Shown: positions 31,501 through 49,500, counted from the first letter of the stretch. The stretch: DNA of 64,000 bases from an uncultured Gemmatimonadales bacterium (GCA_963850905.1 CAWKMU010000003.1:2016001-2080000); one strand, 5' to 3'. Made by a program: the numbers.

Positions 31501-34500
31501 CGCTCGGGATCGGCGCGAACGCCGCCATCTTCACCATCGTCCGCGGTGTGCTCCTCCGTCCGCTCGTCAATCGCGACGAGAGCACACTGATCTATGTTCG
31601 CCAAAGCCAGCCAGGACTCGGAAACCCGAACGCGTCGTTCTCCGTTCCCGAGCTCCAGGACATCGAGTCTGGCGTCCATTCCATGAACCGATTCGGCGAT
31701 TTCTCGACGATTGCCTTTTCGGTCGTAGGCCTCGGTGCCCCGCGGGAGGTGCGCGCGGGTGTCGTGGGCGGCTCCTATTTCGATGTGATGGGGTTGCATC
31801 CGGTCCTCGGTCGGCTGATCGGCCCGCGCGATGACGGGCCGAACGCGCCTGGCGTAGTCGTGCTCACCCATCGGTTCTGGTCGACGACGCTCCAGAGCGA
31901 TCCGTCGCTCATCGGCAAGACCGTACGCCTCGGTAGCGGCTCGCTGGGTTCGCGGATGGCCACGATCATCGGCGTGCTCGAACCATCGATCCCGTATCCC
32001 ACCGAGACCGAGTTGATCGCCAACATCGTTACGAGCCCGCACCACCTGTCGGCGACAATGGTCACCGGCCGCGTGCACCGCATGACCGAGCTGTTCGGTC
32101 GGCTCGCCCCGGGGGCCACGCTCGACCAAGCGCGCGCCGAGTTGCAGACGGTGTACGCCCGAATGACGAGCGACCATCCTGAGGCCTACCCCAAAGAGGC
32201 GATGTCAGCCATCAGCGCCGTTCGGCTGCGCGAGCAGATCACGTCGCAGGCGAGACCCATTCTGCTCATTCTGCTCGCCGCGTCAGGGCTCATCTACATC
32301 ATCGCCTGCTCGAACGTCGCCAACCTGATCCTCGCCCGTTCCATTCGCCGTGAGACCGAGCTCGCCGTGCGCGGCGCGCTCGGCGCGGGCGTCGGGGCTC
32401 TGCGCCGTACGCTGCTGGTCGAGAGCGTGCTCCTAGCCAGCGCGGGCGCGCTCCTCGGCCTGCTGAGCGCGAATCCGATGGTCGCAGTTCTGGCGCGCTA
32501 CGCATCGCGCTTCACGGTTCGTGCGGTCGATCTCACCGTCGACCCCAGCATGCTGTGGGTCGGCGCCGGGCTCGCGATCGTCGCCGCCGTGCTGCTGGCG
32601 TTCATCCCGCGCCTGCCCTCGTCGCGCTCCTCGCAGAGTATCTCGATCGCCAGTGGCGGCGTGCGCATCACGGGGAGTACGAACCGCCGGCTCCGCCTGT
32701 TCGCCGTCACCCAGATCGCTGCCTCGTTCGTGTTGCTCGCGGGCGCCAGTACGCTCCTCAAGACCCTACTCGACCTGCAGCGGTCGCACCCGACGTTCGA
32801 CACGCAGCATGTGCTCGCCGTCGACGTCCCTGTCGACGCCTACGGCAAGACTCAAGCGCAGATCCTGGACTTCTATAAGGAAGCGCAGCGCCGCGTGGCG
32901 CAGCTCCCCGGCGTCGCGGCGGTCGCCGTGGGAGACGTCGTTCCCTGGCGCGACAACGACTTCCTCTTCGGGCTGCAGTTCGCTGCCGAAGGGCACGTTC
33001 AGGCCTCGGGCCAGGACGACCCGCGCGCGGAGTATCGCCCGATCTCGCCAGGATATTTCGCCACGCTCGGCGTTCCGATCGTCGAAGGACGCGATTTCAA
33101 TGATATGGATCGCGACAGCAGTGACGCCGTGGTGATCATCAGCAAGTCCGTCGCCGACAGAGTGTTCCCCGGTCAGGACCCGATCAATCACCATGTGTGG
33201 TGGACCGATCCGGTGATCAAATTCGGCGGTATCCAGCCGACGCCCCGCCGCATCGTCGGCGTCGTCGGGGACATTGACGATGCGCATATCCTGCCCGAGC
33301 CCACCCTGGCGATCTATGAGCCGATCGCGCGGGTAGGTCTGTTCGGCGGCCGCTTGTTCGTGCGCGCCAGCGGCAATCCCTACACGCTCGTCTCGCCGAT
33401 TACCCGGTCAATCCGAGCAATGTCGGCCGACCAGGCTATCGAGCACGCGGCCACGCTCGAGGACGTGAAAGCCGAGGTCCTGACGCCGGACCGCTTGAAC
33501 TCTCTCGTGTTCGGCGGATTCGCGATCGTCGCGCTGCTGATCGCCGTCGTCGGTGTCGCCGGTGTCCTCGCGTTCTCCGTCGGCGCCCGCACCCGGGAGT
33601 TCGGCATCCGACTGGCCATTGGCTCGCAGTCGAGCCGACTGCTGGTGGGCGTCATGCGCGAAGCCGCGGTGATGGCCATCGCCGGAATTATTGCCGGCGT
33701 CGCATGTGGCTACGTCCTGGTGCGTCTCGTGGGCAGCGGGCTGCTCGACATCAAAGCGCCGAGTGCGCTTCCGACTGTCGCCTCGGCGCTCGTCCTCCTC
33801 GTGGCGGCCATTGCTGCGTCAGCCCTCCCGGCGAGGCGGGTCGCACGCATCGACGTGCTGCAGGCCTTGCGGGCGGAGTAGATGCCGATGGATGAAAGAA
33901 GAGAGCAAACGAGCCTCGTACGCGACGCAGGGAGAGTGACGATGCGGAAGATCATCGTTGGCGCCAGGGTTTCCACGGACGACGTCATATAGGCGCCCGA
34001 CGGGCCAACTGAGGATCCGACCAAGGGCTTCACGTTCGGCGGCTGGGTGATGCGTGGCTGCGGCAGAGCGAGCACAGCCATGCTCGATGATGGGCTCGCC
34101 ACGCGTTACGACGGGACCATTGACGCCCCCGCTTGAAAAAGCATGTTCAGGCAACCGGCGAGGTGCGCATGGCCTATCTTGTGACTCACTTCATCCTGGT
34201 CGCTGGGCACGAGTACTCGACAAGAGGGCTCGACTTCGACCAGATGTGCACGCACCGCGCGCAGGAGTGGATCGACACGCTCCGCGCCAAGACGCGCAGT
34301 CACGGGTCGTTCTCGTCGATTCGTCTCACGCCGCCGGTCACGCTGCGCTTCCTCCGGTTCCACTTCACCACGGGGGTCATCGAGTTCATCGACTTCAATC
34401 TCGACCTCACCACGGGCGGCAAGGTCGTAGCGCTGACCGAGAAGAGTTGGACGCCTATTGCCAACTACGCTGGGGACGCGTCGACTGACCCGCGACAAGT

Positions 34501-46500: not shown

Positions 46501-49500
46501 CGGCGGTACGAGCGGGCTGACGGCGGCGCCCATCGAGGCCCAGACAGAGCGGGAGGCATTCACGCCGGATGTGGCGACACGTGTGGAATTGGGGCAGGTG
46601 TTCGAGCAGCTGCTAGCGGAGCGCGGACAGGTGGGGCTCGTCGGGGCGTTTCGAGGCGCGTACGCGGTGTCGAGCGTGCCCGACGATCCGGCGGACGTGG
46701 CCGAAGTGCAGTTTCGCGCGGTGGTCGGGGATCGCGCCATCGACGGAGTCGCGTTGGCGCAAGCGATTGCGGCCGCCGCGCCGGGATTACCGGCGGCCCC
46801 GGTGATCACTGATGCAGCCGCGAAGGCCGCGGTGTTGTTGGCCATTGAGGATTTCCAGGCATGGGTCACCGCTACGATCGGATCAGTCGGAACGGCGGAC
46901 CCCGTGGCGTGGGCGCCTACGCAGCTGGCCTATGCGTTCAACGTCCTCGGGACGGGCCCGACGGGTCAGACGGTGTCGCTCGCGGCGACGCCCGGTGCTG
47001 ATGGGTTGGTCGAGTGGTACGCGCTCGATCTCGCGGCAAGCGCGGCTGGTGCCGCCGGCGTCGCGGTCGGGCGTGGGCCGGCGCCGACGATACGAGCGAT
47101 CATTCCTGCGCACGTGCGGTTTCGGGGGATGCCGAACGCGCGGTTCTGGGACTTCGAGATCGCCGGCACTGACCTCGGGAGCATCATCCCCGACAAGCGT
47201 GACCTGGCGCGGCTGGCCATCATGGATTTCATCATGCTCCACGCCAACGATTGGTTTGTCGTGCCGATCGACATGGCACCCGGCGATCTGCATCAGATCG
47301 ACGAGCTGGTGGTTCACGATGTGTTTGGCGTGGACACGACGGTCGTGCGAGCTGACCGCACATTGGGGTCCGTCGGCCAATGGACGATGTTCACGACGAC
47401 CGTCGTCGGACAGCCACCGTCGGCAACCGCCGATTTCTTCGTCCTGTCCCCCACAGCGGCAACGACGATCGAGCAAGGCACTGTCCTCGAAGCGGTGGAG
47501 TTCGCGCGCGACGAGATGGCCAACATGGTGTGGGCTCTCGAGCAGACGACAGAGAACGGGGTCGGCGCGCCGTGGCCCGGACATGAGCGCGACATCGCGC
47601 ACAACGTGCCGGCACCAGGCGCCGGGCCACCCCCGCCCCCACCGATTCCTGGCGTGCCGCTCCGCTACGTCATTCAGGATCGCGTACCCGAATACTGGAT
47701 TCCGTTTCTGCCACTGTCGATCGATCCGGTTGCCGGGTCGGTGGCGCTGGAGCGCGCGGCCATGGTCCGCGACGACGGAACGCCGATCGAGCCGGCCGGT
47801 CGCATCCTGCGACCATCATCGATCGGGGCGTCGCCCTATCGAGTGCCGGAAGAGGTAATCGCCCCGACGGGCGTGCTGGTCGAGCGCGTCGTGGCACGTT
47901 GTCGCGCGGTCGATGGGAGCACGGCGCTGTGGGTCATGCGCCAACGCGGGCCGGGGACTGGCGAGGTGAACAGCGCCTTGCGGTTTGATCAGGCCGTGGA
48001 GGGATGAGTCGCCCGTGCGTCAGGCAAGCGTCAGAGCAGAAAGTAGAAAGTAGAAAGGAGACCGAGGAGCGAAGCCCCGAGGCGGTTTACCCGCCTCGGG
48101 GCTGCACTGGCTTCTCGTCTCCTTTCTCCTTTCTGCGTCGCTCCTCTCTATTTGGTAGGCCGCTTCGCGGCCTACCAAATCGGGACGGCGGGATTTGAAC
48201 CCGCGACCCCCTGAACCCCATTCAGGTGCGCTACCGGGCTGCGCTACGTCCCGTTGACCGGTGTCCGAGGAAACGTAGGCGCAGCCCCGTGCCGGGACAA
48301 CCAGCGCCTGCGACTCCGTAGCCGGTGCTCGGAGCCCCGGCGCCGATCCCGCCCGGCCCCTTGCGGTTACCGCTCGACCGCCATCAGATGTAGCAGCGCA
48401 GGCTGCACACCACCCACGAAGCCAGGAGCACGACAGCGTGAGCGATCGGTGGCGACGGTTCGCCGGCGTCGGTATGGCGTTGGTCGCCTGGTGTGCGGGT
48501 CAGGCGCACGGGCAGTCAGCCCCCGATCGGTCGAGCCATCACACCTACGAGCTCAAGGGCTTCCGGCTCGAGAGCGGCGTCACGCTGCCCAACGCGACGC
48601 TGGTCTACGCGACGTATGGCCATTCGAGTCCACGACGCGACAACGCCATTCTGCTCCCGTCGCATTACATGGCCGACCACCACGGCTACGACTGGTTGAT
48701 CGGCCCGACGCTCGCACTTGACACCACGCGCTATTTCCTGATCGCGACCGAGATGTTCGGCAACGGTCATTCATCATCGCCGAGCAATACCCCGGAACCG
48801 TTTCATGGACCGCGGTTCCCGGTGACCACGATCCGCGATAACGTCGCCGCCGTTGCCGAGATGTTGAGCAGCCTGGGCATCACTCACCTCAAGGCGGTCA
48901 TTGGCTTCTCAATGGGTGCGGAGCAGGCGTTCCAGTGGGCGGTGAGCCACCCGAGCTTTATGGATCGCATTGTCGCCACATCCGGGACCGCGAAATGCTA
49001 CGCGCACGGCGTCGTCCGTCTCGAGGGTCAGATTGCCGCCCTCGAGGCCGACGAGAACTTCCGAGACGGCGACTACACCCAGGAGCCACTGCGCGGCCTG
49101 CGAGCGTTTGGCACCGTGTGGGCCGGATGGCTGTTCTCACAGGAATGGTGGCGTCGGGAGTTGTGGCGATCGATGACGCCACCGCCTACGTCGGCGACCG
49201 ATGCGCTGGCCCGCATCGTCAAGGGCTTCGAAGGCCAGGACGCAAACGACTACATCCTGCAGGCGCGGTCCTGGGAACGCCACGACGTGGGAACGACCCC
49301 GGGCTTCAATGGCGATGTCGAGCGCGCGCTTCGCTCGATCTCGGTGCCCGTGCTGTACATGCCGTCCGAGACAGACCTCTACTTCCCGATCAGCGACGCG
49401 CGGTACGAGCGACAGTTCATCCCACGGGTGGACTTCGAGCCGATTCCTTCGCTTTGGGGTCATCCGGCAGGTGCAGCGCCGGATTCGGCCGATGCGGCCT

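Follow-up and report, generated by a model that had tools for sequence, protein, structure and literature searches.

Five genes around a DUF6603 protein suggest an undescribed machine with plug-in enzymes

Introduction

In T6SS VgrG/PAAR-effector islands, Rhs proteins, CdiA-CT and the TcC component of Tc toxins, a conserved carrier and a variable adaptor are linked to an exchangeable enzyme; several such carrier-effector pairs with a near-identical core can be present per genome, and payloads are exchanged by recombination in the conserved part. Phage, tailocin and eCIS receptor-binding proteins likewise combine a constant attachment part with a swappable working part, and in encapsulins the cargo gene is found upstream of the shell gene.

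The operon examined here shares the carrier, adaptor and enzyme arrangement of the polymorphic effector cassettes, including paired copies with near-identical cores, and its payloads would be exchanged in the same manner. Its enzyme gene lies upstream of a constant structural gene, as in encapsulins, and its relatives carry binding-type domains (LTD, FG-GAP, TIG), a likeness to receptor-binding proteins. The module has, however, no detected sequence or fold relation to T6SS, Rhs, CdiA-CT or TcC; its variable part is N-terminal, its enzyme is encoded by a separate upstream gene without an immunity gene, and it occurs in archaea as well. It also differs from phage, tailocin and eCIS proteins in that no phage structural genes are found near it.

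Results

A tightly packed operon with patchy distribution

The window (the whole stretch of 64,000 nucleotides that was analysed, from an uncultured Gemmatimonadales soil bacterium) contains the operon of giant genes described in the genome-wide survey's note, with all open reading frames on the + strand:

34169-35479, + strand: g01913 (P0001), 436 aa, the gene upstream of A
35483-38908, + strand: A, the DUF6603 protein, 1141 aa
38905-41976, + strand: B (g01915, P0003), 1023 aa, orphan family, constant subunit
41976-46256, + strand: C (g01916, P0004), 1426 aa, orphan family, constant subunit
46253-48007, + strand: D (g01917, P0005), 584 aa, orphan tryptophan-rich family, constant subunit

In the order g01913-A-B-C-D, the first two genes are 3 nt apart, whereas A and B overlap by 4 nt, B and C by 1 nt, and C and D by 4 nt; the 3-nt gap leaves no ORF between g01913 and A.

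A genome scan by likeness to B returned 64 loci, in which tblastn found A in 54, C in 61 and D in 57. All four genes were present in 50 of the 64 loci, with the same order and strand in every one of the 50, which upholds the same-order recurrence reported earlier; a contig end cuts 13 of the 14 incomplete loci, and the other (L062) has 10 kb of upstream sequence yet lacks A. The earlier scan had counted 68 best loci and g01913 in none of them; the new one gives 64 loci with a tblastn match to g01913 in one, and the pattern of co-occurrence stands. By record titles, the hosts belong to about ten bacterial phyla, mostly free-living soil, freshwater and marine bacteria, and include one Asgard archaeon. 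Nitrospira-like contigs labelled Lysobacter, Anaerolineales and Burkholderiaceae may be mis-binned, and because of these three doubtful labels the earlier figure of more than ten phyla is approximate; the haloarchaeal part of that claim held, with a module copy on four haloarchaeal plasmids.

DUF6603 was found in 5 of 201 genomes of the host phylum and in none of 14 control genomes; some copies are plasmid-borne, and one lies between tyrosine recombinases. These data are in keeping with the horizontal spread proposed in the note: the four-protein module is patchily distributed, probably mobile and accompanied by an enzyme gene that can be swapped. Plasmid relatives are annotated only as 'DUF6603 domain-containing protein' and 'hypothetical protein'. 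A copy of the module was seen in a single 'phage' record, a high-G+C contig that is neither verified nor annotated.

The gene upstream of A usually encodes a recognisable enzyme

The note's statement that the upstream gene varies and is often an enzyme (M64, trypsin) was borne out in the 49 informative loci, those with upstream sequence: a recognisable enzyme precedes A in 34, namely M64 in 10, PhoD in 8, S8 in 7, trypsin/Nal1 in 4, PLD in 2, and M14, DUF4056 and a clan-CD-like protein in one each, where the classes are Pfam matches, several of them under the curated cut-off, and that of L046 comes from BLAST clustering alone. A recognised enzyme is absent from 15 of the 49 loci, of which 8 have a large + strand ORF without a Pfam match upstream of A. 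In six loci A lacks its first ~370-450 residues, and no enzyme gene abuts it; these six probably represent only one or two lineages.

The enzyme gene is exchanged together with the N-terminal head of A

A matches Pfam DUF6603 (PF20248) over residues 434-993 and profile positions 2-501 of 502 with 427 bits, against a curated cut-off of 27 bits, and this is the only Pfam match in the five module proteins. A literature search for DUF6603 or PF20248 found no mention of either, and the Pfam entry apparently contains neither the division of A into head and core nor the cassette logic described below. The two parts of A are as follows:

35483..36980, + strand: A head, approximately residues 1-500, enzyme-class-specific, exchanged with the upstream gene
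36981..38908, + strand: A core and tail, approximately residues 500-1141, most of DUF6603 plus the C-terminal tail, the constant part

In the Nitrospira loci, A heads are 24-34% identical between enzyme classes and 33-93% identical within one class, and heads of the same S8 class can diverge too (33% for L020). Between enzyme classes in Nitrospira, by comparison, the A core is 79-89%, the A tail 82-92%, and B, C and D 84-94% identical (79-97% for the whole set with the A core). The breakpoint lies at residues ~470-527 of the window's A, where sliding identity among the Nitrospira copies rises from 8-40% to 85-100%. Eight loci contain two A genes, each behind its own enzyme where upstream sequence is available; in seven of the eight, a PLD gene precedes the distal copy. 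The 3' 1.7-2.0 kb of the paired copies is 86.8-99.9% identical in nucleotides, and the 5' ~1.5 kb gives no blastn match between the two copies in these eight loci.

Trees of 45 A proteins displayed the same division. On the head tree, enzyme class needs 12 changes, which is the minimum possible and was equalled by none of 200 shuffles, and enzyme classes unite across 2-5 phyla; the core tree of these proteins requires 24 changes of enzyme class, with 9 changes for 9 rows of PLD and 7 changes for 7 rows of S8. Taken together, across loci that were all picked by likeness to B, many of the Nitrospira ones being close kin, head and enzyme class are always exchanged as a pair, and the remainder of the module is constant. 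The swap proposed earlier is thus real, but the enzyme gene alone is not its unit, since the N-terminal ~500 residues of A swap as well; and because enzyme gene and head form the swapped unit, the functional unit comprises five genes rather than the four of the earlier description.

g01913 is a candidate cysteine peptidase of the caspase/legumain fold

The AlphaFold2 model of g01913 (pLDDT 81, pTM 0.85) has, by VIA-align, its best match in legumain (Z 9.2-9.4 over 171-178 aligned residues; for 4aw9, Z 9.2 over 178), and these Z values are modest and refer to a predicted structure. GPI transamidase (PIGK) and clostripain follow at 9.0 each, SAVED-CHAT at 8.3, metacaspase at 8.0 and caspases at 7-7.6, and in a pdb_via search with the model all 50 of the matches listed were legumains, C11 peptidases or caspases. 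In the predicted model and the alignment a His and then a Cys each stand at the end of a beta-strand, as in clan CD, and the predicted fold is the caspase/hemoglobinase alpha/beta fold:

34694-34696, + strand: putative catalytic His176 of g01913, in S-H-G, after strand 167-174
34898-34900, + strand: putative catalytic Cys244 of g01913, in W-G-C, after strand 238-242

Among 12 aligned sequences, H176, G243 and C244 are nearly invariant, and H176 and C244 are kept in at least 90%. Two features set g01913 apart from clan CD, namely the spacing of 68 residues between His and Cys and a conserved RDPxDKDGR insert within it, and no curated family model (C11, C13, C14, CHAT or others) in Pfam or NCBIfam matched at E<=1. 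Only 10 homologues were found among 5.8 billion proteins searched; on a metagenome contig, a 43%-identical relative again abuts the module, its gene being followed at once by a full-length A (52% identical) and then by B and C. g01913 is therefore a candidate clan-CD-like cysteine peptidase and the likely payload enzyme of this window, where, if the modelled fold is right, the upstream gene would thus encode a hydrolase too. This speaks against the earlier description of g01913 as an unrelated protein. Its low G+C was confirmed (0.606) and is due to amino-acid composition, as its GC3 of 0.815 falls within the range of neighbouring genes (0.80-0.88).

B, C and D are orphan subunits

As noted before, B, C and D have no Pfam, NCBIfam or PADLOC model: the searches were again empty, save one PADLOC-DB 2.0 row of 14 bits (E 0.004, on C), a chance match and the only row for the five module proteins. 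The AlphaFold2 model of B (pLDDT 84, pTM 0.68) predicts beta-sandwich domains at the N-terminus, helices in the middle and an alpha/beta part at the C-terminus. Foldseek found no match to it in PDB or BFVD at E<=1e-3, and the best VIA match (Z 6.7) covers 44 residues only. B has 2610 homologues at E<=1e-10, the best 120 of which have no Pfam domain and no name but 'hypothetical protein'. The variable middle of B contains the following feature:

40564..40704, + strand: hydrophobic hairpin of B, residues 554-600, two predicted helices (557-572 and 576-597)

The Kyte-Doolittle profile of this hairpin peaks at 2.82. Since only 14 of 49 full-length B orthologues have a comparable segment, membrane insertion cannot be a general step. 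C has no Pfam or NCBIfam match and returns only its own unnamed family in the ESM Atlas. For D, an alignment of 41 sequences has 25 invariant columns. Neither B nor C nor D has a sequence relative in the PDB.

Hints at the site of action

A signal-peptide-like N-terminus (crude hydrophobicity score >=2.3) was found in none of the orthologues of A (0/22), B (0/49), C (0/45) or D (0/51), and none of 38 upstream ORFs reached 2.3; by the same measure, four neighbours within the window that look exported reach 2.35-2.52. Beside the module there was no sign of an export route or of genes for secretion or lysis. Relatives of the module proteins nonetheless carry domains that are odd in a cytoplasm: LTD at the C-terminal end of D relatives, PG_binding_1 together with S8, FG-GAP or TIG in longer D relatives, PG_binding_1 in the upstream protein of a relative locus, FG-GAP repeats in the middle of a Streptomyces B copy (residues ~1100-1170 of 1709) and a 'BGTF surface domain' in the annotation of a C relative. 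These additional extracytoplasmic-type domains strengthen the earlier suggestion of a surface role, still as a hint.

No components of known machines were found in the module or its flanks

No Pfam match to VgrG, PAAR, RHS, TcA/TcB, sheath, tube or baseplate was found in the module or the window flanks. The families that mark Tc (ABC) toxins (TcA pore/VRP1, TcB/TcC RHS cocoon) are missing from P0001-P0005 and from the B and C alignment members, and the B fold has no match; the sheath, tube and baseplate (gp25, VgrG) of contractile injection systems (T6SS, eCIS, tailocin) are missing from the module and the 13 flanking window ORFs. Weak rows for gp25, GP11 and a tail terminator (E 0.13-0.25) occur in one member each of the 29 or 35 in the B and C alignments. 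The layout also departs from that of classical polymorphic toxins, in that the variable part consists of an N-terminal head and a separate upstream gene.

Discussion

Altogether, these data suggest that the five genes encode an undescribed machine with plug-in enzymes. The explanation that we favour, tentatively and at somewhat less than an even chance, is a constant chassis by which plug-in enzymes reach targets beyond the cytoplasm. This chassis would consist of the DUF6603 core and tail of A together with B, C and D, and the payload cassette of the upstream enzyme gene and the N-terminal ~500-residue head of A; judged from sequence co-variation, the head may be an enzyme-specific adaptor that holds its cognate hydrolase or loads it onto the chassis. 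Here that hydrolase would be g01913, the caspase/legumain-fold candidate, and homologous recombination within the conserved core of A would bring in new payloads. More speculatively, the loaded complex might act outside the cytoplasm; as signal peptides are absent from all subunits, its way out of the cell would be non-classical, and it might attach by means of the variable binding modules and, in this copy, also by B's hydrophobic hairpin. The hydrolase might thereby be brought to the envelope of other cells, for purposes of antagonism or of predation, or else to different substrates outside the cell. Two points count against this: to our knowledge, M64, PhoD, M14 and S8 are not typical injected toxins, and beside the enzymes no small gene resembling the immunity gene that usually accompanies an antibacterial toxin was seen.

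An intracellular conflict or anti-phage system is unlikely. Here a constant sensor or scaffold in the cytoplasm would be built from the A core with B, C and D, the variable enzyme (protease, PLD-type nuclease or lipase, phosphatase, caspase-like peptidase) would act as the effector, killing the infected cell or halting its growth, and the head would link effector and sensor. In its favour, neither subunits nor enzymes have signal peptides, the spread is patchy and mobile (5 of 201 genomes, plasmids, tyrosine recombinases), eight loci have two effectors each, the g01913 model resembles SAVED-CHAT (Z 8.3), and effector swapping (caspase-like, trypsin-like, PLD, metallophosphatase) is a hallmark of known immune systems. 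However, Pfam and NCBIfam found no NTPase, nucleic-acid-binding or known sensor domain in the module or the B and C alignment members, PADLOC matched no known anti-phage protein for g01913, A, B or D, with only the 14-bit row for C, and the peptidoglycan-binding, LTD, FG-GAP, TIG and 'BGTF surface' domains of relatives sit oddly with a cytoplasmic device; M64, M14 and PhoD are, as far as we know, not usual immune effectors. Slightly less likely still is an envelope-anchored, cellulosome-like scaffold displaying interchangeable exo-enzymes (phosphatase, proteases, carboxypeptidase, lipase) for the cell's own nutrition. The enzyme classes typical of scavenging, the free-living hosts, the hairpin in some B copies, the binding domains on relatives and the missing immunity genes, which it would lead one to expect, all suit such a scaffold, but signal peptides are absent and most copies lack an anchor, sporadic and plasmid-borne spread is unusual for a housekeeping nutrition device, and a caspase-fold peptidase with peptidoglycan-binding modules points to cells rather than dissolved polymers.

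It is very improbable that the chassis is an encapsulin-like shell or cage with an inward head tethering a cargo enzyme: it would fit that a variable cargo gene immediately precedes a constant structural gene whose N-terminal part is specific to the cargo, and that all parts are leaderless, but the B model matched no shell fold, be it HK97-like, BMC or another, no known shell is made of four different giant subunits, and outward-looking binding domains on relatives do not agree with it. Least credible is that the enzyme gene is a mere neighbour, linked through a shared mobile-element history and not by function. Gene adjacency alone is weak evidence of interaction and 15 of the 49 informative loci have no recognised enzyme; yet the enzyme-A junction is at most 3 nt in this operon and in many of the other loci, the head, unlike the core of that protein, shows perfect co-variation with enzyme class, and each A has its own enzyme in two-copy loci.

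If the chassis with plug-in enzymes is a machine that leaves the cell, it would be common to bacteria and archaea, independent of known secretion systems, and would deliver interchangeable hydrolases to the envelopes of other cells; this fuller version is doubtful. If true, it would be a delivery system of a new class, for toxins or enzymes, in which cassettes of an enzyme and its adaptor head recombine into a constant DUF6603 core.

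Organization of the module in the window

The genome-wide survey's note had described a tightly packed operon of four genes, A (g01914, which carries DUF6603), B (g01915), C (g01916) and D (g01917), preceded by g01913. All five open reading frames (ORFs) were recovered on the plus strand with the coordinates and lengths originally reported:

34169-35479, + strand: g01913, ORF of 436 aa
35483-38908, + strand: A, ORF of 1141 aa, Pfam DUF6603
38905-41976, + strand: B, ORF of 1023 aa
41976-46256, + strand: C, ORF of 1426 aa
46253-48007, + strand: D, ORF of 584 aa

The junctions from g01913 through A, B and C to D are a 3-nt gap followed by overlaps of 4, 1 and 4 nt, and g01913 is therefore a member of the packed unit. 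DUF6603 on A (residues 434-993, 427 bits) was the sole Pfam match among the five proteins, no NCBIfam model matched any of them, and PADLOC returned only one 14-bit chance row for module proteins, in agreement with the survey's report that family matches are otherwise lacking. A promoter scan gave 0 promoter-like sites, and terminator-like sites were uninformative. The flanks of the module hold ordinary hydrolases, a MacB/FtsX-type permease and a beta-lactamase-family protein. The permease gene, upstream of the module at 31395-33881, belongs to a very large paralogous family; G084, a genome of the same genus, has 26 matches to it, the closest of them 34% identical. A single flanking hydrolase gene is common to the window and G084, and thus no island boundary was definable by synteny.

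Recurrence of the module and its hosts

A scan of the genome collection with B as query gave 64 loci, in which tblastn matched A in 54, C in 61, D in 57 and g01913 in 1. The four core genes were found together in 50 loci, with order and strand kept in 50/50, so the conserved gene order claimed previously was borne out. Thirteen of the 14 incomplete loci end at a contig edge, and L062 has 10 kb of upstream sequence yet is without A. Genes downstream of the module are not conserved among related loci. In seven loci (L019:12561-13364 and six others, all of Nitrospira type), an extra gene of ~190-270 aa without a Pfam match lies between B and C, and C is ~350 aa longer N-terminally (1772 aa); the window is without this gene. 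In L001:13181-19111, a 91%-identical relative, C and D form one open frame of 1977 aa with no stop between them, and either the two genes are fused or the long-read metagenome-assembled genome has an error of one base there.

At E<=1e-10, B has 2610 homologues; among the 120 of these that were listed, none had a Pfam domain and the sole name was 'hypothetical protein'. Record titles place the hosts in about ten bacterial phyla and one Asgard archaeon. Cultured non-pathogens among the named hosts include Gemmatirosa kalamazoonensis, Rhizocola hellebori NBRC 109834, Verrucomicrobium sp. BvORR106 and Salinigranum marinum. The wide bacterial range described by the survey thus stands, but its figure of more than ten phyla is approximate, because three Nitrospira-like contigs filed under other labels are possibly mis-binned. 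The module is present in thirteen plasmid records (haloarchaea 4, Streptomyces 5, and Gemmatirosa, Rhizobium, Paraburkholderia and Nocardia 1 each), the four haloarchaeal records confirming the plasmid-borne archaeal copy reported before. On the Streptomyces europaeiscabiei plasmid (L065, NZ_CP107864.1, 365222-391957), five tyrosine recombinase/integrase genes bracket the module, a gene for a 652-aa pentapeptide-repeat protein follows it, and the gene before A encodes an 828-aa hypothetical protein on the opposite strand. On the Streptomyces longwoodensis plasmid (L068, NZ_CP107814.1), a gene with an RHS repeat-associated core domain is found on the opposite strand, a few kb before the module. 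DUF6603 was detected in 5 of 201 searched genomes of the window's phylum and in 0 of 14 control genomes; none was found in G084, and the window's genome has a single copy. A metagenome scan with g01913 (P0001) gave no match and one with P0012 gave one locus, and no paper in the library searched names DUF6603 or PF20248. A phage origin of the module was rejected, as the lone 'phage' match (L067, MT835531.1) is UNVERIFIED, unannotated and very G+C-rich. Deposited under 'UNVERIFIED: Bacteriophage sp.' and deriving from a faecal sample, it encodes B, C and D and probably stems from a bacterium.

The gene upstream of A is usually a hydrolase

The gene directly upstream of the B-proximal A was typed by Pfam and by tblastn with class representatives; 15 of the 64 loci were without upstream sequence, leaving 49 informative.

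Genes directly upstream of the B-proximal A in 49 informative loci. In several cases the Pfam match is partial or falls short of the curated cut-off, and one locus (L046) was placed in PhoD by BLAST clustering only.
M64-type: 10 loci
PhoD-type: 8 loci
Subtilase S8: 7 loci
Trypsin/Nal1-type: 4 loci
PLD: 2 loci
M14: 1 locus
DUF4056: 1 locus
g01913-type: 1 locus
Recognised enzyme, total: 34/49 loci
Large + strand ORF without Pfam match: 8 loci
A without its N-terminal ~370-450 residues and no enzyme gene directly adjacent: 6 loci
No A: 1 locus

The proposal that a variable enzyme gene precedes A was therefore upheld. The six loci with a headless A probably represent one or two lineages. Plasmid copies follow the same pattern, with a PhoD-type gene in Salinigranum, and in the Streptomyces longwoodensis plasmid copy the upstream protein has 1519 aa and a PG_binding_1 domain. 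Furthermore, the S8 proteins (L020, L021, L029, L031, L053) and trypsin/Nal1-type proteins (L047, L055, L056), two serine-protease classes unrelated to each other, have in common a C-terminal helical domain of ~130 aa with the motif 'R.ATVWHR..GP'. This domain was not found in the M64, PhoD, PLD or g01913 proteins, and was rejected as a universal docking signal for that reason.

The head of A is swapped together with the enzyme

The swapped unit consists of the enzyme gene and the head of A, i.e., its N-terminal ~500 residues. The survey had proposed a swappable enzyme gene; the upstream enzyme does vary, but it does not vary alone, since identities among Nitrospira loci and separate trees of head and core both reveal that the A head changes with it. 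Among ten Nitrospira loci, pairs with different enzyme classes are only 24-34% identical over A residues 1-430, whereas the same pairs are 79-89% identical over A 431-990, 82-92% over the A tail and 84-94% over B, C and D; in same-class pairs, head identity is 33-93%. A sliding comparison placed the breakpoint at window-A residues ~470-527, adjoining an invariant G469-P470 ... P503 motif. Eight loci, seven from Nitrospira and one from Acidobacteriota, carry two A genes, with a PLD gene before the distal A in 7/8 and an M64, S8 or trypsin-type gene before the proximal A. Copies from one genome are 86.8-99.9% identical in nucleotide sequence over the 3' 1.7-2.0 kb and do not match over the 5' ~1.5 kb. 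This spread of identities speaks for repeated gene conversion between the copies rather than an artefact of assembly.

Head and core trees were built separately with FastTree from 45 A proteins. Enzyme class requires 12 changes on the head tree, the minimum for 13 classes (shuffled mean 29.7; 0/200 as low), and head clades span phyla (PLD 3, S8 2, PhoD 4, M64 5); on the core tree of the same proteins, it requires 24 changes, including nine for nine PLD rows and seven for seven S8 rows. The window's A head clusters with those of trypsin-linked and subtilase-linked copies (local support 99%). The heads of L021:799-4191 (distal A) and L050:157-3708, whose upstream genes lie off the contig, fall inside the PhoD clade, and a PhoD-type enzyme is therefore predicted upstream of each.

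g01913 is a candidate cysteine peptidase

The survey had called g01913 an unrelated protein of low G+C. This description did not hold, as the gene is packed into the unit and its structural matches are led by clan CD peptidases; nor does low G+C (0.606) mark it as recently acquired foreign DNA, because its GC3 (0.815) is like that of its neighbours. Only 10 homologues of g01913 were found, and their alignment contains a conserved S-H176-G, an RDPxDKDGR motif and W-G-C244. In the predicted structure (pLDDT 81, pTM 0.85), H176 directly follows strand 167-174 and C244 directly follows strand 238-242. An unbiased VIA scan of this model ranked clan CD peptidases on top, with legumain at Z 9.2 (178 aligned), GPI transamidase 9.0, clostripain 9.0, T6SS effector Tce1 8.5, SAVED-CHAT 8.3 and metacaspase 8.0, followed by caspases, gingipain and toxin CPDs. 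In a second VIA comparison, 50/50 listed rows were legumains, C11 peptidases or caspases; Foldseek matches were weak, with C11 at E ~1e-2. On the strength of this model, g01913 is read as a divergent candidate cysteine peptidase of the caspase/legumain fold with putative activity. On a metagenome contig, a 43%-identical relative precedes a full-length A (52% identical) with 20 nt between them, and B and C come next. Co-prediction of g01913 with residues 1-510 of A, its head, scored 0.00, a value that speaks neither for nor against binding.

Structure of the core families

In the model of B (pLDDT 84, pTM 0.68), beta-sandwiches at the N-terminus are followed by a helical middle and an alpha/beta part at the C-terminus. 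Foldseek found no match for it in PDB and BFVD at E<=1e-3, and in a full VIA-align scan nothing rose above background (best Z 6.7, a 44-residue helix pair). Searches of PDB sequences with the A protein and profile and with B and D profiles gave nothing real, the A matches being helical-bundle noise at residues 5-125. In the ESM Atlas, C matched its own unnamed family only, and the A head had no usable match among named clusters. When every member of the B and C alignments was scanned against Pfam with permissive settings, no weak family recurred. Profile-profile comparison of B with D and of C with B yielded nothing, and C 755-850 and D 109-207 had a weak 96-column similarity at 55% probability; the four core families are treated as unrelated for these reasons.

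Site of action and proposed mechanism

By inspection, a signal-peptide-like N-terminus was seen in no subunit or upstream enzyme. A crude hydrophobicity score of at least 2.3 was reached by 0/22 A, 0/49 B, 0/45 C, 0/51 D and 0/38 upstream ORFs; four exported-looking window neighbours score 2.35-2.52. The only strongly hydrophobic segment lies in B: residues 554-600, within its variable middle, form a helical hairpin (~45 residues) that is found in 14/49 orthologues. The accessory domains on relatives are of extracytoplasmic type: in Salinigranum, LTD on D and a 'BGTF surface domain' annotation on C; in Streptomyces, FG-GAP within the middle part of B and PG_binding_1 in the protein encoded upstream; and on longer D relatives, PG_binding_1 plus S8, FG-GAP or TIG.

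Taken together, a constant chassis (A core and tail, B, C and D) and a payload cassette (the enzyme and the A head) co-vary strictly. The A head would quite probably act as an adaptor specific to its own enzyme class, with recombination in the conserved A core exchanging or stacking payload cassettes. Our overall reading, offered tentatively and at somewhat below even chances, is that the loaded complex would reach the cell exterior by a non-classical route and deliver the hydrolase to external targets, most likely the envelopes of other cells. It is unlikely that the module is instead an intracellular defence system with swappable effectors, and marginally less likely that it forms a surface scaffold for nutrient scavenging. 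A compartment enclosing the enzyme appears improbable, and we give least credence of all to mere neighbourhood of the enzyme gene.

The module invites comparison with T6SS VgrG-effector islands, Rhs/CdiA/TcC polymorphic toxins and phage receptor-binding cassettes, each of which resembles it in logic only, with no common family or fold. Unlike in these systems, the variable part of A is N-terminal and the enzyme is a separate upstream gene; furthermore, no immunity gene was found with the module, unlike in the effector systems to which it is likened. The module displays none of the testable membership features of these systems; it is not fileable under any known kind and is therefore rated new in kind, with a function that is proposed only.

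All four core families are without a name, a solved relative or a publication, although the 2610 homologues of B alone are spread over about ten bacterial phyla and two archaeal lineages; should the reading hold, the module would be a widespread molecular machine of a kind so far undescribed. g01913 would, as a candidate, add a very small new branch of caspase-fold peptidases. The rule linking head and enzyme suggests payload exchange by design, makes the enzyme class predictable from head sequence, and predicts the protein, and the part of it, that holds the payload, which renders the system experimentally tractable.
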